Below, piece after piece: positions 505 through 60,855 of a stretch of 64,000 bases of DNA; the stretch's first letter is position 1, and every line of letters begins with the position of its first letter. The DNA lies in NCBI GenBank assembly GCA_965205505.1, contig CBDBHB010000009.1, positions 2,688,001-2,752,000 of the forward strand, written 5' to 3'. The notes beneath the pieces were generated by a model. That model had not been told where the DNA came from, searched no databases, and saw only the letters and a list, made by a program, of their open reading frames with translations. A program made the position numbers and the translations under genes. Source of the stretch: Acidobacteriota bacterium. Lineage in GTDB: Bacteria > Acidobacteriota > UBA890 > WLXD01.

Positions 505-1089
505 ATGGCAAGACTCGAGCCGAGAGCACCGCATCACGAGTTCGGAACAGTCGAGGTGATCTGCGGCAGCATGTTCTCCGGCAAGAGCGAGGAGTTGATT
601 CGCCGCCTCCGGCGGGCCCAGATCGCCAAACAGGTAGTGCAGGTTTTCAAGCCGCGCGTCGACGATCGTTTCGACAGCGATCACATCGTGTCGCACAACC
701 AGCAGAAACTGCCGAGCGCCCGCGTCCGTGACTCCAAGGAGCTGTACGCGGGTGTGCGCGCCGACACTCAGGTAGTCGGCGTGGATGAGGCACAGTTCTT
801 CGATGACGGGCTCGTCGAGGTCTGCCAACGCCTTGCCGCTGAGGAGCATCGCGTTATCGTGGCTGGGCTCGACAAGGATTACCGCGGTGAGCCCTTCGAG
901 CCCATGCCGGCGTTGCTGGCGATTGCCGAGTACATCACCAAGACCCTCGCGATCTGCATGCAATGCGGCCGACCCGCCAACTTCTCGCAGCGGCTGACCG
1001 CCAGCAAGCAGCGCGTCGTGGTGGGTGCATCGGATGTGTACGAGGCTCGTTGCCGTCACTGCTTCGATCCGCACAACGACGCCTGCTAG
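505..1089 (+). CDS. tdk: Thymidine kinase
   Basis: GSMFSGKSEELIRR P-loop, VGVDEAQFF, VAGLDKDYRGEPF, Zn-binding CMQC...CRHC. Confidence 0.95.
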   Translation: MARLEPRAPHHEFGTVEVICGSMFSGKSEELIRRLRRAQIAKQVVQVFKPRVDDRFDSDHIVSHNQQKLPSARVRDSKELYAGVRADTQVVGVDEAQFFDDGLVEVCQRLAAEEHRVIVAGLDKDYRGEPFEPMPALLAIAEYITKTLAICMQCGRPANFSQRLTASKQRVVVGASDVYEARCRHCFDPHNDAC

Positions 1090-1163
1090 CAGGCAGTGGT
1101 GGAAGTGTGGTGGGCCTGGTTGCGGCGAGTTGGGGCCGGATGGAAGGCGGCCTGACGCGGGCG
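1086..1163. repeat. Truncated left part of a family-A CTAG-bounded MITE-like element
   Basis: CTAGCAGGCAGTGGTGGAAGTGTGGTGGGCCTGGTTGCGGCGAGTTGGGGCCGGATG aligns with the start of the copy at 33944. Confidence 0.8.
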
Positions 1164-10724: not shown

Positions 10725-10756
10725 CAGGAGCACTAACCTCTGTTACAGGCCTCTAG
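10725..10756. repeat. Tandem remnants of MITE ends (C-type CAGGAGCACTA, B-type CTCTGTTACAGGCCTCTAG) at the aroC stop
   Basis: Match the right ends at about 50146-50157 and 15753-15772. Confidence 0.55.
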
Positions 10757-14232: not shown

Positions 14233-14334
14233 ATGAGATGAGATGAGAAGGCCAACCTCCTGAACGCAGTAGCCTGACGGCTCTGCAAACGTTTCTTCAA
14301 ACGTAACGGGCTCGAAGCCCAAGGAGGTTGGCCG

Positions 14335-15377
14335 ATGAGGAGTGTAACGATTGGACTGGACGTAAGCGACCGGTACAGCCGTATGTGCGTGCTCGACAGT
14401 AAGGGCAGGGTGATGGAGGAAGGGCGGGTGAGGACGAGCCCGGAGGGGCTGGCGAGGCGGTTCGGGTGCGAGGAGCCCGCTCGAGTAGTGCTGGAGGTTG
14501 GAACGCACTCGCCGTGGATGAGTGAGCAGTTGAAGCAACTGGGTCATGAGGTGCTGGTGGCTAACCCGAGGCGGCTGAAGCTGATCTATGGCGAGCACGG
14601 ACCGACCGGTTGGATGCCGAGCACCTGGCACGAGTGGGCAGAATGGACCCAAAGCTGCTTAAGACGGTGCAGCATCGAGGCAGACAAGCGCGAGCGGATC
14701 TAGCCGTGATTCGGAGCCGAGATGCTCTGGTAAAGAGCTGCACGCAGTTGGTGAGCCATGTGCGTGGTGCGGTCAAGTCGGCCGGTTGTCGTATTCCCAG
14801 GTGCTCGACGCCGGCGTTCGCGCGCACCGCGCCAGAGCACATACCGGAGCGGCTCAAGGGAGCGCTCGAGCCGGTGCTTGAAACGATCGCCATGCTGACG
14901 GGCAACATCCAGCAATACGAGCGTCAGATCGTGCAGCTGTGCCAGGGGCGATACCCGGAGACACAGCAGCTCCAGCAAGTGGCCGGGGTCGGAGCTCTGA
15001 CCGCACTGGCGTATGTGCTGACGCTCGAGGAGCCGGAGCGGTTCAATACCTCCAGAGCCGTGGGCCCGTACCTGGGACTGAGACCGAAGAAACGGCAGTC
15101 GGGGGACAAGGACCCTGCGCTACGAATAACCAAGGCGGGCGACAAAATGCTCCGACGCCTGTTGGTGGGCTCGGCGCATTACATCCTGGGCCCCTTCGGG
15201 CCCGATACTGAGCTCAGACGCTGGGGGCTCAAGCTGGCCGGACGCGGTGGTCCTCATGGCAACAAAAAGGCAGCAGTTGCTGTCGCCCGTAAGCTCGCCG
15301 TTGTGCTGCACCGACTGTGGCTGAGTGGAGACGAGTACGAACCGTTGCGCGCACCTGTAGAGGTTTCAGCAGCATGA
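14335..15377 (+). pseudogene. IS110/IS1111 DEDD transposase (recombinase), frameshifted near 14600
   Basis: IGLDVS, VVLEVG, [K]TDRLDAEHLAR, GVGALTALAY, YLGLRP..QSG, ITKAGD, AVARKL; two frames (14335-14703, 14610-15377). Confidence 0.9.
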
Positions 15378-15610
15378 ACTAACCCGCAACCAGGAGGTCG
15401 GTAGGGCGACGCGACCCAACGGTTATCGATCTGACCGCCCGGTCCGGGCGACTGCGAAGGTCACTACGAGCTTCGAGCTCGGCAGCTAGATTGCAGCGCC
15501 TCGAATCGGGACGGACCCCAGAATGCACCGGACGACCTGAATCCTCGTCCACCAGAGTGCGAATAGGAGCATGGCGTGCAGATCGATTCTTCGCTGGGCA
15601 CCACATTGCC
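15378..15610 (+). ncRNA. Putative bridge/seekRNA in the IS right non-coding end (boundaries approximate)
   Basis: Stem GGCG-A-CTGCGA/TTGCAG-CGCC enclosing GGTCACTA + hairpin CGAGC-TTCGA-GCTCG + GCAGCTAG, which match both strands of the empty site GGCGGCTAGTGGCC. Confidence 0.7.
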
Positions 15611-15637
15611 CTTGACCGAACTAGGCCTTCTCATAGA

Positions 15638-15772
15638 AGTGGCCTGTAACAGATGGATATCGGCGTTGCGCCTCGTCGATGATGCCTATTGCATCGCCTT
15701 CCTCGCCGCGCCTTGATCTCACCCGCAAATCCCTTCTGCGATATGCGACGATCATCTGTTACAGGCCACTAG
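15638..15772. repeat. Family-B MITE-like element (single module), left end split by the IS1111 insertion
   Basis: IRs (CT)AGTGGCCTGTAACAGATG / CATCTGTTACAGGCCACTAG; internal TCGATGATG-N7-CATCGCC..CCTTG; followed by duplicated AGGCCACTAG (15773-15782). Confidence 0.8.
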
Positions 15773-20613: not shown

Positions 20614-20721
20614 GGGACGAGGTCGGCCCTGCCTCGTTTGGCGACGCCGTACCCAGACCCATCAGAGTCCTTCAGCACCCTGCTATAAGCTAGCGGCGCC
20701 CGCTGACCAACCGGAGTCGCC

Positions 20722-27358: not shown

Positions 27359-27637
27359 CTAGCATGCCGTGGTGAAAGTGTGGTGGGTCTGGCGACAGGG
27401 TCTTGCGAAGTGGAGGCAAGGAGAGAGGAGGAGGCGATGGTTACCCCATCGTTGACAAGGAACGACGCAGCATACGCGCGCAACCCCCTGTTGCCCGAAG
27501 GGTTACGGCGATTTGGGGCCATCTGCGGCGTTGGCCTTCCTCGACGATGGCTAGGGCATCGCCAGTGTCAGGCCGCCTTGCATCTGGCCCCAACTCGCCG
27601 TAACCAGACCCACCACACTTTCACCACGGCCTGCTGG
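27359..27637. repeat. Family-A 279-bp MITE-like element (inverted relative to 33944)
   Basis: Near-identical reverse complement of 33944-34222; IRs of about 33 bp. Confidence 0.9.
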
Positions 27638-28461: not shown

Positions 28462-29025
28462 TCAGTCCTCGACGACCTTCGTGCCAGCCAGCTTGTCTCC
28501 CAGGCGCCGTCCTTCCGCGTCCGTGAACAGGAGAACCAACTCGATCACGGTCAATGCCAATGCCGCGAGTAGAACGAACGGTACGAGCACCATTCCGATG
28601 ATTGTGAAGACCAACAGCGGCACCAGTGGCCCCAGCGCGAACATCCAGTTGCGCTTGAGCGATGTCGTAACGTCAAGCGGGGCTCCGTCTACCGACTGCA
28701 GGTGGAGCTTCATGACGTGCTTGCCGACCGAACGATGGTTCATGAAATCGAATTCCATGCCGTCTCGAAGCACCATGTACGCGGCGGCGATCAATGCCCC
28801 GATCCCTGGTATGAAATTGATGACGAACGCGATAGCGCCATCGATCAGCATGGCGACGATACGCTTGCCGAGATCCGCCTTGGCGCCGGGAGCGGCATCG
28901 GGGCCCGTCGATGCTGGCGGATCGGGCTGTGCGACGGGCTCCCGGACGTCGGAAGCGGCGGCGTCACCCGTCGAGGCTGGCGGATCAGATTGCGCTGCGG
29001 GCTCCTGAACGTCGGAATCGGTCAT
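28462..29025 (-). CDS. RDD-family membrane protein
   Basis: ADLGKRIVAMLID, SVGK, RRLGDKLAGTKVV. Confidence 0.85.
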   Translation of the reverse strand: MTDSDVQEPAAQSDPPASTGDAAASDVREPVAQPDPPASTGPDAAPGAKADLGKRIVAMLIDGAIAFVINFIPGIGALIAAAYMVLRDGMEFDFMNHRSVGKHVMKLHLQSVDGAPLDVTTSLKRNWMFALGPLVPLLVFTIIGMVLVPFVLLAALALTVIELVLLFTDAEGRRLGDKLAGTKVVED

Positions 29026-29363: not shown

Positions 29364-29957
29364 ATGAGAGATCACGCCAGGCACATGGTTTCGGCGGCTG
29401 CGCTCGTCGCCATCACGGCAGCGGCAGGTTGCGCGCCGGGGCGCTCGATTGTCCGTGGCAGCTGGCCGGACGGGCGAATCGAAGGTCCGGCGATGAGTCG
29501 GCCCGCGCCCGTCGCGATTGCCTACGTGCGTCCCGAGCTCGCAATCGAGACCGATGACTGGCTGCCCGCGGAGACTACGTACGACGGGTTGAGCGCCGCC
29601 GAGCTCAACGGCATGGGTGTTTTGCAGCCAATTTACTTTGCCCTCGATCGGGCCGATATTGATGCCGACCAGATGGCAGCGCTCGACGCCAACATCGAGT
29701 GGCTAGCCCAGGTTCCCGACGCCGCCATCGTTATCGAGGGTCACGCCGATGAGCGCGGCTCGCGCACCTATAACCTGGCCCTCGGGCAACGCCGCGCCGA
29801 GGTGGCACGTGACTACCTGGTCTCGCGCGGCATCGCCGCATCTCGGATCGAAGTGGTGTCGTATGGGGAGGAGCTTCCTGCCAACCCGGAGCACAACAAC
29901 GCTGCCTGGGACTCCAACCGGCGCGACGAGTTCGTGATTACCGCGAGAGGTCGCTAG
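29364..29957 (+). CDS. Pal/OmpA-family peptidoglycan-binding lipoprotein
   Basis: Lipobox AAGC; IYFALD, IEGHADERGS..YNLALGQRRA, SYGEE, NRR. Confidence 0.85.
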   Translation: MRDHARHMVSAAALVAITAAAGCAPGRSIVRGSWPDGRIEGPAMSRPAPVAIAYVRPELAIETDDWLPAETTYDGLSAAELNGMGVLQPIYFALDRADIDADQMAALDANIEWLAQVPDAAIVIEGHADERGSRTYNLALGQRRAEVARDYLVSRGIAASRIEVVSYGEELPANPEHNNAAWDSNRRDEFVITARGR

Positions 29958-30031
29958 CAGGCCCACCACACTTCCACCACGCCTGCGGGCAGGTCGTCGC
30001 CGGGCCCGCCACACTTCCACCACGCCTGCGG
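29954..30031. repeat. Degenerate family-A MITE ends; 29-bp direct repeat
   Basis: CTAGCAGG at the stop codon, then GGCCC(A/G)CCACACTTCCACCACGCCTGCGG at 29960-29988 and 30003-30031. Confidence 0.65.
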
Positions 30032-32833: not shown

Positions 32834-33528
32834 GCGTCGCCTCCGCCGGCTGCGCCGCCACGGGCGTTGAACAGTTCGAAGCGCCAGTGTAGCCCGGGGA
32901 TCGACGCCGCTAATTCGTCGATGCGTCGTCGCTCAGCATTGCCGCGTACGCGTCCGCCGAGGATGGCCTGGTCGCCACGGACGCTGAGCCGGCCCGTATC
33001 CGACAGGGCGTTCATGATCCGCACCAATGCGTTGGCATTGAGCATCCAATCGTTCGGTTCGAGCTGGTTATCGATGCGCAGGTCGGAGCGCACGCGGCCG
33101 GCGCCGAATATATGTTCCGCGGCGACGACGAGGTTCTGTGCGTCGGTGTCGGACACACGTCCGGAGACGACGAGCATCGAGCCCAGTCGCTGCAGTCGCA
33201 GTTCGGCAAGCGCCACGCGACGCGGCGTGGGCGTGGACGCGATCACTCGCTCGACGACGAGCCGGTCGCGCACCGCACGCACACCGGGCACGGCGCCGAC
33301 GATCGCGACGATGCGTTCAGCCTGGTCGCTCGACGGCACGAAGCCACCCAGGACCGCGTCGCGACCGTCGAATTTCAGTCCATAGTAGGCAACGCCGGCG
33401 CTGGCCAGTGCGGCCTGCGTACGCCTTAGTAGGTCGGCCTGGATGCCGCCCACCGTTACCACGACACTCAGGATCAGGGTCCCGATGAGCATGAGTGTGA
33501 TGGTACCGAACCGCGCCCGCTCTCTCAT
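32830..33528 (-). CDS. BON-domain membrane protein
   Basis: N-terminal TM; FDGRDAVLGG..VPGVRAVRDRL; repeated BON-like units. Confidence 0.7.
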   Translation of the reverse strand: MRERARFGTITLMLIGTLILSVVVTVGGIQADLLRRTQAALASAGVAYYGLKFDGRDAVLGGFVPSSDQAERIVAIVGAVPGVRAVRDRLVVERVIASTPTPRRVALAELRLQRLGSMLVVSGRVSDTDAQNLVVAAEHIFGAGRVRSDLRIDNQLEPNDWMLNANALVRIMNALSDTGRLSVRGDQAILGGRVRGNAERRRIDELAASIPGLHWRFELFNARGGAAGGGDA

Positions 33529-33938
33529 GGCGATACCTCAGGCTCGGCGAGCTCCAAAGCCCGGCGGCGCCCAGGCAACATCAATCCGGCGGCCAGGAGC
33601 GCCAGCCCGGCGCCCAGCGCCGCCGCAAGCAGCATCAGCTGTGCGGGAGTCACGCCCTCGTGGTTGTTGAAGCGGATTCTGAGCTCGTCAGGGTCAACCG
33701 GAACATGCCCCGGTCCTTGGCGTAACTCGCCGTCCTGGGCCACCTGCAACAGGGGCTGGTCCTGCAAATAGACTTCGACCCGCGAGCCCGCTTCGCCGAG
33801 GCTCGGGGCGTCCTCGAGCAACGGCCAATAGGCATCTTCACGTAGCGGGTTCGATACCTGTATGGCCATGGCTACCGCTATCGCCAGACAGACGCCGGCG
33901 GGCACCAGCAATGCGACTCTCGACGGCGTGCGACTCAT
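33525..33938 (-). CDS. Hypothetical two-TM membrane protein
   Basis: ATGA-coupled to the BON gene; two hydrophobic segments. Confidence 0.65.
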   Translation of the reverse strand: MSRTPSRVALLVPAGVCLAIAVAMAIQVSNPLREDAYWPLLEDAPSLGEAGSRVEVYLQDQPLLQVAQDGELRQGPGHVPVDPDELRIRFNNHEGVTPAQLMLLAAALGAGLALLAAGLMLPGRRRALELAEPEVSP

Positions 33939-33943
33939 CGGCC

Positions 33944-34222
33944 CTAGCAGGCCGTGGTGAAAGTGTGGTGGGTCTGGTTACGGCGAGTTGGGGCCAGATG
34001 CAAGGCGGCCTGACACGGGCGATACCCTAGCCATCGTCGAGGAAGGCCAACGCTGCAGATGGCCCCAACTCGCCGTAACCCTTCGGGCGACAGGGGGTTG
34101 CGCGCGTATGCTGCGTCGTTCCTCGTCAACGATGGGGTAACCATCGCCTCCTCCTCTCTCCTTGCCTCCACTTCGCAAGACCCTGTCGCCAGATCCACCG
34201 CACTTTCACCACGGCCTGCTAG
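33944..34222. repeat. Family-A 279-bp MITE-like element
   Basis: CTAGCAGGCCGTGGTGAAAGTG...CACTTTCACCACGGCCTGCTAG; two internal stem-loop arms; central CCCTTCGGG. Confidence 0.92.
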
Positions 34223-34477
34223 CCCCTTCAGTGTCCAATCCATGGGATTCTGACCACCCTTGTACCTTATCCGACTCGGGACCGTTTTTCCTGGCGTCCG
34301 GCCGTACGCAGCGTCGCGCGTCCGCCTGTTCGCCGCCACCGAACAGCGAACAATTACAGGGAAAAGTCCGTACAATGAGGTTTTCCGCGAGTCGGAAGCC
34401 CTACGGACTGGCTGGTGCCGGCGATCGTCGTGGCTCTGCCTCGGACGGAAGATCCAGCCAGGCCGCAGGAGCAGGTG

Positions 34478-45535: not shown

Positions 45536-46300
45536 ATGTCAGCAGATCACGTCGCTCGTAAAGATCTCAAGAAGTCGGACGAGTTCCAGCGTGGAGCTAC
45601 GGCCGCAATCTCTTGGTTCATGCAGCGGCGGAAGAGCATCGGACTGGTTCTTCTTTTCGTCGTCGCTGGACTGTCGGTTCTGGCTGGCGTGCGCTCGTAT
45701 CGAATGCGGCAGGAGCAGAATGCCGCGGCGATGCTCGCGGTAGCGCTGCAGGCGTTCAATGCCCAGATCGCCGGTGCCCCGACGACCATACCCGCCAGCT
45801 CTCCGGCCGGGCCAGCGTACGAGTCGGAAGAGGCGAAGCTCGAGGCTGCGATCCCGCCCCTGCAGGCGGTAATCGATGCCTATGGCACGTACCCTTCGGG
45901 TCGTGCCGCGTCGTTCTACCTGGGAACCAGTCTGGCGCGTCTCGGTCGCCTGGAGGCGGCCGAAGCGAGTCTACGGGACGGGGCTCAGGCGGCCGCTCCG
46001 CTGCCGCGTGCCACGTCGCTCCTTCGGCTCGGCGGGCTGTTCGCGCAGCAGGAGCGCTACGCTGAAGCTATCGAAGTGTTCGATCAGACGATCAGCGATC
46101 CGCCGCATGGGTTCCCCGTCGAGGAGGCGCTTGTCGCCAAGGCACGCGCGCATGAGGCGGCCGGACAGACTCAGGAGGCGATGCTCGCGTATCAGCAGAT
46201 CGTCGACAATCACCCAGGCTCGGTATACGCGCAGTCCGCCAAGACGCGTGCCGACGAGCTAGCCGCTACGCTCGGCCTCGACCCGGACGCAGAGCCCTAG
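45536..46300 (+). CDS. Membrane-anchored TPR protein (YfgM-like)
   Basis: RKDLKKSDEF, one TM, TPR repeats. Confidence 0.75.
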   Translation: MSADHVARKDLKKSDEFQRGATAAISWFMQRRKSIGLVLLFVVAGLSVLAGVRSYRMRQEQNAAAMLAVALQAFNAQIAGAPTTIPASSPAGPAYESEEAKLEAAIPPLQAVIDAYGTYPSGRAASFYLGTSLARLGRLEAAEASLRDGAQAAAPLPRATSLLRLGGLFAQQERYAEAIEVFDQTISDPPHGFPVEEALVAKARAHEAAGQTQEAMLAYQQIVDNHPGSVYAQSAKTRADELAATLGLDPDAEP

Positions 46301-46357
46301 CAGGCCGTGGTGCATCAGACCCCGACTCGCCGCAACCAAGCCCGCCAGCCTTCCTAG
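46297..46357. repeat. Internally deleted family-A MITE remnant
   Basis: CTAGCAGGCCGTGGTG + CCCCGACTCGCCGCAACCA, ending in CTAG; starts on the TPR gene stop. Confidence 0.65.
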
Positions 46358-46369
46358 TGCAGCATCTTA

Positions 46370-48494: not shown

Positions 48495-49172
48495 TCACTC
48501 CTCGAGTAGGGCCGGGAAGGTCAGGTATCCAAGTGCCAGAAACAGCGCGTCGAAGGCAATCAGCAATCTCAGCCAGTGTAGCTCCTCTGCGAGACCTCGG
48601 CCGGCCAGGATGGAGCCGGTTGTCTCGACGCAGGCGATCAGCAGCGGCACGGCGAAGGGTATCAAAAGCAGGGGCAGCATCACCTCGCGCGTTCGTGTTC
48701 GAACCGACATGGTTGCGAGCGTTGTTCCCAAGGCCACCAGACCCATTGTGCCGAGTGCCACGACAAGCGCGAGCGCCCCGACCAGACCGTAGACGGGCAC
48801 GTTGAAGAAGACCACGAACAGCGCAAGGGTCACGATCTCGGTGGCCGAGAGCAGCAGGAACAGGCTCAAGCACTTGGCGATATATAGGCTCGTGCGCTGC
48901 ATGGGGCAGAGCATCAACCCCTCGAGCCTGGCGTCCTCTCGTTCGTCGAGCATCAAGCGGTTCATTGCCAGGATCGACCCGAAGAGGAACGCTATCCAGA
49001 GAATTCCGGCGCCAACCACGCTGAGATCGCGGGTACCGGGATCGAACGCGAAGTTGAAGACCAGCAGCACCAGCAGAGAAAAGAAGACGGTCGAGATCAG
49101 GGCCTCTTTGGTGCGCAGTTCGCCGCGCAGGTCCTTAACGACGATCAGCGCGATGTGGCGTGCTGCGTTCAT
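48495..49172 (-). CDS. ccmB: Heme exporter CcmB
   Basis: KDLRGELRTKE, GILWIAFLF, EREDARLEGL, REVMLPLLLIP. Confidence 0.92.
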   Translation of the reverse strand: MNAARHIALIVVKDLRGELRTKEALISTVFFSLLVLLVFNFAFDPGTRDLSVVGAGILWIAFLFGSILAMNRLMLDEREDARLEGLMLCPMQRTSLYIAKCLSLFLLLSATEIVTLALFVVFFNVPVYGLVGALALVVALGTMGLVALGTTLATMSVRTRTREVMLPLLLIPFAVPLLIACVETTGSILAGRGLAEELHWLRLLIAFDALFLALGYLTFPALLEE

Positions 49173-49879
49173 CGGCCACCCTCTGCGACCAGACCATAGT
49201 AGGTGGCTTCGAACTCGTCGGCGGCGCCCGCCGGCTGGATATGAGCTAGCTTGCCTCGCCGAAGCACCGCCACGCGGTCGGCCAGCTCGATGCCGCGGCG
49301 AAGGTCGTGGCTGGTCATGATGACGGTGCCGCCGGCGGCGTGGGCGGCGCGCAAGAGGTCTACCAAGCGCTCGGCGGCCATGGGGTCGAGCCCGGAGAAC
49401 GGCTCGTCGAAGAGCAGCACCTCGGGCTCGTGCACCAACGCGCGTGCGATGGAGCATCGCTGTACAAGCCCACGCGAGAAGGTCCGCACCTGATCATCGA
49501 GACGATTGCTGAGCTGCATCATGTTGGCAACGGCGCGTACGCGTGCTTCAGGATGCTCGACACCGAACATTCGGGCGTAGAAAAGAAGATTCTCGCGCGC
49601 CGTGAGCTGTCCGTAGAGGAACGATTGGTGCGACACGACGCCGATCCGTGCACGGATCCTGGCGTCGGCGCGCAACAGCCCGGTTCCGAGGATCTCGACG
49701 GTACCGGTGGTGGGACGGGCCAGCGTCGATAAGCAACGAATCAGGGTTGTCTTGCCGGCACCGTTGGGTCCGAAGATGGTAAGGAACTCGCCCCGCGGCA
49801 CCTCGAGCTCGACGCCGGCCAAGCCCACGTGCCGCCCGAATCGCTTCCCGAGCCCACGGGCAACGATGGTGGCTTGCAC
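49169..49879 (-). CDS. ccmA: Heme ABC exporter ATPase CcmA
   Basis: GPNGAGKTT, LYGQLTARENL, FSRG, DEPFSGLD; operon context. Confidence 0.9.
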   Translation of the reverse strand: MQATIVARGLGKRFGRHVGLAGVELEVPRGEFLTIFGPNGAGKTTLIRCLSTLARPTTGTVEILGTGLLRADARIRARIGVVSHQSFLYGQLTARENLLFYARMFGVEHPEARVRAVANMMQLSNRLDDQVRTFSRGLVQRCSIARALVHEPEVLLFDEPFSGLDPMAAERLVDLLRAAHAAGGTVIMTSHDLRRGIELADRVAVLRRGKLAHIQPAGAADEFEATYYGLVAEGGR

Positions 49880-50157
49880 TAGTGCTCCTGATCATAAGTA
49901 CGGTGACGTTTGCAGGAGCGAGATGCGGGCGAGATCAAGGAAGGGTGAGGAAGGCGATGTCTTAGCCATCCTCGACGAGCCCTGACGCCGAGATCGCCCG
50001 CATCTCGCTCCTGCCCTCCGGGTGGCCGCGGGGCCGGCCACCTTGGGCGTCGCGGCGCCTCGACGATACACCCAGCATCGCCCTCGTCGCCGCTCCTACA
50101 ATTCGCCCCGGTCGCGCGCGCCACAAACGTCACCGTACTTATGATCAGGAGCACTAG
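49879..50157. repeat. Family-C 279-bp MITE-like element
   Basis: Perfect 34-bp IR CTAGTGCTCCTGATCATAAGTACGGTGACGTTTG; 21-bp internal stem; central CCCTCCGGG. Confidence 0.92.
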
Positions 50158-57147: not shown

Positions 57148-57432
57148 ATGAACCACGAGCTTGTTGGCGAGGAGGTCACCCTCACCGGGACGGCCTCCGG
57201 GATGCTCCGTCTCGTTGTGGACGCCACTGAGTCTTTCATGACCGCCGCCGGCGCTGCCGGATGCGATAGCGCTCAACTGGAGGCCGGTGTTCGACAGGCG
57301 CTCGACGATATCGGAGAGACGTCGGCCACCGCGATTCGTGCTCGGTTGATCGTCGTCACCGAGGGCATCGACGTGATCATCGGTCCCGATGCCGAGGGCG
57401 CGGAGTCGCACACGGTTTCGTGCCGCGTCTAG
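57148..57432 (+). CDS. Small hypothetical protein
   Basis: Open frame with natural composition between ribF and cysS; its stop coincides with the MITE CTAG. Confidence 0.55.
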   Translation: MNHELVGEEVTLTGTASGMLRLVVDATESFMTAAGAAGCDSAQLEAGVRQALDDIGETSATAIRARLIVVTEGIDVIIGPDAEGAESHTVSCRV

Positions 57433-57709
57433 CAGGCCGTGGTGAGAGTGTGATGGGTCTGGTTACGCCGCCAAGGGCGCAGCTGCAAGGCGCAGCGACG
57501 CCAGCAATGCCTCCGCGCATCGTTCAGGAGCGGCAACGCCGCAGATGTACCGTTGGCGGCGTAACCCTTCGGGCAAGTGGGAGTTACGGGCAAATGGCAT
57601 CGTCGTTCCTCCTCGACGATGGGCACCGCATCGCCATCCTCATCGCGCCTTGAGCTTGCCCCCATCTCGACCCAGCAATATGCAACGAACCTCTGCTACA
57701 GGCCACTAG
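57429..57709. repeat. Chimeric 281-bp MITE-like element (A-type left end, B-type right end)
   Basis: CTAGCAGGCCGTGGTGAGAGTG ... CCCTTCGGG ... CTCTGCTACAGGCCACTAG. Confidence 0.85.
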
Positions 57710-60557: not shown

Positions 60558-60633
60558 GCGGGAATAGCTCAGCTGGTAGAGCGCAACGTTGCCAACGTTG
60601 AGGTCGCGGGTTCGAATCCCGTTTCCCGCTCCA
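60558..60633 (+). tRNA. tRNA-Gly (GCC)
   Basis: GCGGGAA/TTCCCGC acceptor stem, CAACG-TTGCCAA-CGTTG anticodon arm, GGTTCGAATCC, encoded CCA. Confidence 0.97.
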
Positions 60634-60721
60634 ACTAATCTTGGCGCGCGGACCCTCTTCGCGCGTAGATCCGGCCGCCCCCACAGCACGTCGGGGCGAG
60701 TCCGGCGTCGACCCTTGATGA

Positions 60722-60793
60722 GGCGGCGTAGCCAAGTGGTAAGGCAGCGGTCTGCAAAACCGCGATTCGGCGGTTCGATCCCGCCCGCCGCCT
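60722..60793 (+). tRNA. tRNA-Cys (GCA)
   Basis: GGCGGCG/CGCCGCC acceptor stem, GCGGT-CTGCAAA-ACCGC, GGTTCGATCC, U discriminator; CCA not encoded. Confidence 0.95.
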
Positions 60794-60855
60794 CCTCCTT
60801 TGCACACGCCGCTGATGTCGAAGCCACTCGACATCGACGTGGCCGACGTGTTGTC

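Follow-up and report, generated by a model that had tools for sequence, protein, structure and literature searches.

A 5.98-Mb acidobacterial genome (64% G+C) harbors about 100 full-length copies of a two-armed element, mostly 278–281 bp long and inserted at CTAG, which combines ends matching those of three IS types with an interior of fixed geometry that covaries at canonical as well as non-canonical pairs. These elements are MITEs, being short, non-coding, multi-copy and bounded by terminal inverted repeats, and they constitute an undescribed variant of this kind: neither the element nor its shared core or junction is described in the searchable literature, beyond which most subscription papers, ISfinder and preprint supplements lie, a coverage that does not prove absence from print. 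The interior of a bacterial MITE is usually regarded as decayed filler, or else as RNA hairpins that arise incidentally. In these elements, it is better conserved across the phylum than the ends and obeys position-level rules; the central mini-hairpin with its GNA loop, the predicted gap-free four-way junction and the paired G·A modules with non-canonical exchange are all new. We tentatively propose that this interior works as a folded-DNA hinge that would help visiting transposases to pair the ends, a reading in which our confidence stays somewhat short of even.

Elements, ends and insertion sites

The window, by which we mean the whole 64-kb stretch of DNA that was analyzed, contains the following MITEs and parts thereof.

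33944..34222 (no strand): focal family A two-armed MITE, 279 bp; empty single-CTAG site in G002, filled in G004
33944..33977 (+): left terminal inverted repeat, 34 bp with CTAG; its first 21 bases equal the left end of the G011 IS1182-like element
33978..34078 (+): arm 1, a 101-nt hairpin with its G·A-rich fold on the + strand
34001..34055 (+): module conserved in arm 1, made up of two double units of tandem mismatches (centers 34004 and 34014, 10 nt apart) and then a 7-bp hairpin that has a free loop and contains a G·T wobble
34079..34087 (−): mini-hairpin at the center, 3 bp, its loop being GAA when the − strand is read; in the predicted junction it is the fourth helix
34088..34188 (−): arm 2, a 101-nt hairpin with its G·A-rich fold on the − strand; module at about 34110–34164
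34189..34222 (−): right terminal inverted repeat, 34 bp with CTAG
27359..27637 (no strand): family A copy in reverse orientation relative to the focal copy, 97% identical to it; CTGG right border
49879..50157 (no strand): family C two-armed MITE; ends IS630-like by resemblance only, partner IS not found
57429..57709 (no strand): single-copy hybrid, 281 bp; left end A-type, right end B/D-type
15638..15772 (no strand): family B internal-deletion remnant that retains one arm in truncated form; an IS1111-type element splits its left tip
1086..1163 (+): decayed family A half-element, whose TAG terminates the upstream gene
46297..46358 (no strand): short family A remnant at the TAG stop of a gene
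10732..10756 (−): lone B/D-type end
20640..20686 (−): lone A2-type (IS5-like) end

Five of these stretches had been singled out in the initial annotation, and their lengths (279, 279, 279 and 281 bp), CTAG borders (CTGG at 27634–27637), inverted repeats, arm stems and central 9-mer are as described there. Of the general layout that it proposed, the inverted repeats, the arms and the 9-mer stand; the repeats of about 30 bp are part of a 34-bp end stem that includes CTAG, and the presumed linker in the center is a hairpin. Family B, taken for a one-module version, is normally two-armed and 278 bp long, 15638–15772 being an internal-deletion remnant, and 57429–57709 is a one-off hybrid of an A-type left and a B/D-type right end rather than a regular family member.

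Several copies abut genes. The left CTAG of the family C element contains the TAG stop of an ABC-transporter gene (49169–49879, −), and the hybrid is flanked by cysS and by a short gene whose end falls in the element's CTAG. Judged from the empty site in G002, the focal element (33936–34230 with its surroundings) separates a purine-rich stretch resembling a Shine-Dalgarno sequence from the ATG of the gene at 33525–33938 (−); folding of its end stem would rejoin the two, and the same insertion is found in G004. Elsewhere in the window, 28884–29009 is a 63-bp tandem duplicate within an ORF, 29948–30031 consists of two A-type end fragments in tandem, and 60558–60795 contains tRNA-Gly and tRNA-Cys genes.

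A profile search of the genome yielded 383 arm hits, from which 141 inverted pairs and, where both tips are present, 104 elements were obtained. The fixed length claimed for the family holds, as 91 of these 104 elements measure 278–281 bp, which is not a broad distribution, and the arm-to-arm distance is 178–180 in 127 of the 141 pairs. The conserved module is equally real, having 178 full matches in the genome and 0 after shuffling (449 and 23 for a loose core), and it lies 48 or 49 bases from the tip in 308/316 arms with a typed end, irrespective of which of the five end types they carry. Folding z-scores of the elements range from −13 to −14. A micropeptide starting from a Shine-Dalgarno-like stretch and ATG in the arm was rejected: the frame is open to a far TAG in arm 2 of family A, and elsewhere it stops early or is out of frame.

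The focal site illustrates how the elements insert. In the relative G002 it is an empty, single CTAG, whereas G004 carries the same insertion, about 97% alike in the element and about 91% in the flanks. The element thus has a duplicated target and an empty orthologous site; the duplicated unit is TA or CTAG, the two not being firmly separated by a tip search that required TAG. The outer base often differs on one side, and about half of these cases are junctions with the IS1111-type element. Of 40 G004 copies compared with this genome, 18 were without mappable flanks; for the other 22, the site here was empty in 14 cases, occupied by other sequence in 7 and filled in 1. Individual sites come and go, but the master element persists.

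Autonomous IS with similar ends, which the initial annotation had suggested looking for, do exist. The ends of family A agree in 21/21 bases with those of a 1505-bp IS1182-like element in G011 (whose top NCBIfam match, IS1182, is under the cut-off), the A2 ends resemble an IS5-like element of G007, and those of D and E are similar to IS630 right ends from this genome and from G007; no partner IS of family C was found in the loci examined. The partner of family A is absent from this genome and from 25/26 genomes of the order (present in 1/26), which may reflect past bursts by visiting elements. The tips have many private but few shared variants (29 against 5), as expected if they matter only for moving. 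As had been claimed, the elements exchange their ends without losing structure or length, and the interior is no remnant of a deleted IS, since the end-matching IS copies have no arm; among 30 DUF772 and 24 IS630 loci, there was no arm-bearing autonomous IS, arms occurring only as separate neighbors and not within the IS ends examined. The annotation's suggestion of a REPIN-like mobilization, in which a RAYT/Y1 HUH enzyme would excise the element as single-stranded DNA, could appeal to the two inverted structured units at fixed spacing that are also seen in REPINs (PMC3116915, partial text), but a Y1 HUH transposase (Y1_Tnp) occurs in 1/26 genomes of the order and is absent from this one, and the elements have DDE-type ends and a duplicated target; we regard this reading as highly improbable.

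IS630 copies often share a CTAG with a MITE tip, namely at least 6/9 of one G007 type (L209 and L211–L217 in G007; L005, L006 and L210), which suggests that MITE tips are insertion hot spots for IS630. An identical IS630 copy with identical flanks in this genome and in G004 (L001, L208) indicates a recently shared region, and the 5.1-Mb genome of G007 shows a large IS expansion, with 146 DUF772 (IS5/IS1182-like) matches (L044–L073).

A further element uses the MITE tips as its target.

14236..15637 (+): IS1111-type (IS110 family) element, 1402 bp; 31 near-identical copies in the genome
14335..15377 (+): DEDD recombinase gene, split over two reading frames in the window copy
15458..15489 (+): candidate target guides (15458–15466 and 15481–15489) in the downstream non-coding region, found by eye

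It belongs to the IS1111 subgroup by its DEDD and Transposase_20 domains, its subterminal repeats (11–13 bp in the subgroup, 11 bp here) and its downstream non-coding region. The repeats leave 7 and 3 bases outside, following the 7/3-base rule in the accessible text of PMC11187229, and insertion is between the CT and AG of MITE tips; 25/31 copies adjoin tips of families B, D or E. By eye, the candidate guides match both sides of the insertion site in the order given in PMC11187229 (partial text). A putatively RNA-guided IS aimed at MITE tips would add a parasite-on-parasite layer to this system.

The elements are not confined to this genome. A-like elements occur in 22/41 relatives, the arm covariance model matches 40/121 genomes of the phylum, and a pattern scan returned 28 loci, including some in Gemmatimonadota and Nocardioidaceae genomes. 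Two-armed forms of 271–284 bp with many different ends recur across families, as do one-armed forms of 165–178 bp. One Nocardioidaceae genome has one-armed elements of about 166 bp, and one Gemmatimonadota genome (G138, L245–L274) has about 40 copies of a one-armed 128-nt class with a longer apex, whose short terminal stems vary by copy yet remain paired and which mostly comes without long ends or TA borders. In this genome, the 32 one-armed derivatives that retain both ends are of scattered lengths and show no amplification; an arm 1 deletion joint is present in contigs of three public runs. No conserved gene was found next to lone arms among 12 loci inspected. Two loci stand apart: in G006, the sole model match is a lone antisense arm without IS ends (L095:1501–1610), placed by eye right after an apparent tmRNA 3' end, and at L082:1299–1641 an arm is broken by two small GC-rich hairpins of a different repeat type.

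Predicted fold of the interior

The arms fold into long hairpins whose pairing is upheld by covariation. In 56 arms, 87.6% of cells are paired, as compared with at most 45.6% for slid partners, and double changes occur in 30/38 pairs, with a covariation score of 0.52 against 0.16 in shuffled data. Among 64 divergent arms (<85% identity, selected among the top 82 of the 99 model hits), G·T is more frequent than A·C by 134 to 43, or 96 to 43 excluding a conserved wobble, which identifies the strand of each arm that folds; on either strand, the arm beside the 5' end is the G·A-rich one. The apical loops are free, 5–8 nt long and not tetraloops. Bridge-RNA-like guides in the arms were ruled out, as the variable stretches pair with one another.

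Each arm contains two double G·A modules ten bases apart. At their heart are the lone pairs G30-C76 (64/64) and C40-G66 (C-G in 45, G-C in 16), which lie ten positions apart and are each enclosed by tandem purine mismatches. Column pair 32:74 is C·A in 40, A·G in 23 and otherwise composed in 1 of the 64 arms, but never A·A; it ranks 9th of 5565 column pairs, and on a tree from which these columns were left out, noisy as it is given the short sequences, both columns switch together about 14 times. In DNA, a tandem of G·A plus A·C can replace sheared tandem G·A. The latter stacks strongly in DNA (PMC8163305, partial text).

These mismatches bear on the view that we are dealing with ordinary MITEs, in which template switching would perfect the palindromes and thereby create covariation, while the length would be inherited from a single ancestor. 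Such repair does act on these elements, as is evident from hairpin deletions and end hybrids, and long-stem folds are common among bacterial MITEs. Repair would erase mismatches, however, and the G·A tandems, the G·T wobble, the C·A/A·G exchange and the GNA loop persist across families and phyla. Repair cannot keep such mismatches; the non-canonical covariation already goes a long way toward refuting this explanation, and we consider it improbable.

Between the arms, the central CCCT(T/C)CGGG can pair into a 3-bp hairpin with a 3-base loop. This center is present in 121/136 arm pairs, with a GNA loop on one strand in 119/121 (background 18.5%); of 42 non-redundant cores, 38 have the center, 31 of them with GNA and 3 with ANA. 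Its stem covaries from CCC/GGG to TCC/GGA in the triloop register. The opposite strand reads as a cUNCGg RNA tetraloop in 35/38 cores, a register broken only by the TCC/GGA family (family B). With its GNA loop, C-G closing pair and short G-C stem, the center has the defining features of a DNA GNA mini-hairpin as given in the accessible part of PMC13037366. According to the same partial source, such hairpins are unusually stable in DNA, resist nucleases and bind SSB poorly, and a related GNNA-loop hairpin is far less stable as RNA (39 vs 76.5 °C).

No unpaired base separates the end stem, arm 1, the mini-hairpin and arm 2, which are thus predicted to form a four-way junction. In a test of 12 junction pairs, 67/101 full-length copies have all 12, 17 score 11, 9 score lower and 8 are without the center, whereas 0/303 shuffles reach 12 of 12; the passing copies come from families A, A2, B, C, D and F, and the layout is exactly 34+101+9+101+34 = 279 in 47 copies. 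The same gap-free geometry is found in 25/31 two-arm loci of the model search, mostly in other genomes.

Strand, gene context and the role of the interior

With genes called by our own codon model, 0/101 copies lie inside genes, 45/100 are on TAG stops (vs 22% of intergenic CTAG), and convergent sites are enriched (37% vs 24%) and divergent ones depleted. In 73 pure-family copies, hybrids being left out, copy-specific substitutions per 1000 amount to 16.8 in the loop, 11.7 in the end tip, 10.3 in the inner stem, 6.4 in the hairpin, 6.2 in the motif, 5.2 in the outer stem and 4.8 in the inner end. The motif is thus depleted even of private changes (p=0.003 vs loops, p=0.2 vs ends), which leaves room for a constraint, that is, for a role after insertion.

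Such a role could be exerted as RNA: co-transcribed copies would fold, and their G·A arms and cUNCGg loop would tune mRNA decay or avoid polarity, with one arm per strand making any orientation tolerable to the host. This is in line with the gene context and with the scarcity of private changes in the motif, and RNA often contains G·A pairs in tandem as well as G·U wobbles; moreover, ERIC RNA changes mRNA stability via RNase E in an orientation-dependent manner (PMC2229807, partial text). The strands, though, point the other way. At 57 co-oriented sites, the GNA strand is sense in 38 and the UNCG strand in only 19, so that the RNA-type UNCG reading is the less frequent one in transcripts; family B breaks the tetraloop register, and the apical loops are free and no tetraloops. 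In one-armed elements, the G·A strand is more often antisense (15:5 in G138, 8:4 in E. coli, 14:7 in this genome, 22:19 in a looser set), a bias that could also arise functionlessly by selective loss of the better-folding arm. The one RNA run, which held 6% of the words and a single 42-base piece of the end, is uninformative in this respect. The Rfam search for a known RNA family, another check that had been suggested, found only tRNAs in the window and nothing relevant at gathering or E-value thresholds, the weak generic hairpin hits being far under threshold. The initial annotation, whose interpretation is partly supported as a whole, had offered an RNA cargo as one of two options; this part we disfavor, as the GNA triloop, the stem covariation and the strand preference fit folded DNA better, and we rate an RNA role as rather unlikely.

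As for replication, the GNA strand is the lagging-strand template in 66/105 copies (p=0.011; for two contigs, the direction of replication is an assumption based on skew). By context, the ratio is 31:11 at genes transcribed with the fork, 8:7 at head-on genes and 27:21 elsewhere; a clear bias is confined to sites at which transcription runs with replication, and the two effects are therefore not separated. A preference for the lagging template would suit a single-strand initiation or restart site, which as folded single-stranded DNA would exclude SSB and recruit primase or PriA, enabling re-replication or survival of single-strand transfer. GNA mini-hairpins are indeed found in phage and plasmid single-strand priming sites and in the N4 promoter, and the RSF1010 priming site ssiA has the very 7-base mini-hairpin of the element's center, a type that binds SSB poorly (PMC13037366, partial text); a host-driven route would also fit the scarcity of partner IS. 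On the other hand, transposases matter, since the tips agree exactly with IS ends and are under constraint in lineages that spread; the focal element, moreover, has no match in a plasmid collection. We therefore think a priming site doubtful at best.

For the folded-DNA hinge, the functional steps that we infer are the following. The non-autonomous elements are probably moved by visiting DDE transposases, and their 211-bp interior likely folds as DNA, the two long hairpins and the mini-hairpin making up a flexible hinge that would bring both 34-bp ends together for any visiting transposase. Exposure of a strand or underwinding of the duplex may allow this fold to form, and the GNA mini-hairpin is a plausible nucleus for it. 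The G·A modules, which are spaced by one helical turn, would be recognized by a conserved host structure-binding factor; we favor a host factor over the transposase as their reader because the transposase families differ. Intact elements would be favored in copying, and the interior would thereby outlast each change of ends. Such a hinge would explain the fixed geometry, the indifference to the type of end and the failure of deleted copies.

Some observations speak against it. ViennaRNA prefers a three-way fold with an open center in 7/8 folds, the center can be read as cUNCGg, and tandem G·A pairs suit RNA as well. Furthermore, one-armed versions have spread elsewhere (ERIC, the elements of about 166 bp in Nocardioidaceae and the 128-nt class in Gemmatimonadota), and two arms and a center are thus not always required. 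No protein that binds the fold was found. That the strand bias is confined to co-directional sites, that private changes are scarce in the motif and that the IS1182-like partner occurs in a single genome out of 26 likewise count against the hinge.

The rules of the interior, i.e. the GNA loop, the C·A/A·G exchange, the ten-base spacing and the gap-free junction, translate into exact, testable mutants. If they are rules for DNA, they would amount to a new route by which non-autonomous elements compete for transposases, one that may extend to ERIC, and a transposase-agnostic enhancer of this kind could serve engineered mini-transposons.

Comparison with known systems

REPINs, which go with RAYT, resemble the element in having two inverted structured units, a fixed length and compensatory changes, but differ in that 25/26 genomes here are without a Y1 enzyme and the elements combine DDE ends with a target duplication. 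RUP with IS630-Spn1, Correia/NEMIS and bcr1 likewise have IS-shared ends, a TA-type target and a structured interior; bcr1 keeps a two-stem cruciform through compensatory changes (PMC3184786, partial text). Unlike in those MITEs, a single interior is common to IS1182-like, IS5-like and IS630 ends and absent from the IS themselves, and it retains non-canonical pairs and a fixed, predicted four-way geometry.

Integron attC sites invite comparison as strand-specific folds of DNA whose stems vary and whose unpaired features are conserved, much as proposed for the element. Phage and plasmid single-strand initiation sites offer the same parallel (PMC13037366, partial text). In contrast to both, the element has no linked integrase or primase gene and, by eye, no attC box order.

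The neighboring IS1111-type element shares with IS4321/IS5075 and ISPa11 of the IS1111 family the subterminal repeats, the downstream non-coding region and a mobile or repeated target (PMC11187229, partial text); it differs from them in that its target is the tip of this MITE family.

ERIC (IRU, RU-1; 127 bp, in enterobacteria) is, like the element, a TA-bounded, folded MITE that is intergenic and co-transcribed. At E=0.11 in 3 kb, the arm model aligns with the E. coli ERIC found between aceF and lpd, whose basal loop agrees on either side and which has tandem G·A steps; searched against the whole K-12 chromosome, the model gave no match. ERIC differs in having one arm, a longer and different apical part and no central mini-hairpin, and its end repeat is 7 bp long (PMC2229807, partial text) as compared with the 34-bp ends here; a 279-bp two-armed element therefore falls outside the definition of ERIC by a length of about 127 bp, a single stem and short TA-bounded ends. 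From the shared basal motif and the intermediate forms, the two may nevertheless be kin. In the accessible parts of reviews on ERIC, its mobilization is still unexplained. It is conceivable, if on balance unlikely, that ERIC-type cores across phyla are a structure-coded DNA signal that would, through a universal host factor, hijack passing DDE transposases, and that the acidobacterial two-armed form with its predicted junction and GNA mini-hairpin would be the clearest blueprint of such cores. If this is true, the question of how ERIC-like repeats spread becomes directly testable.
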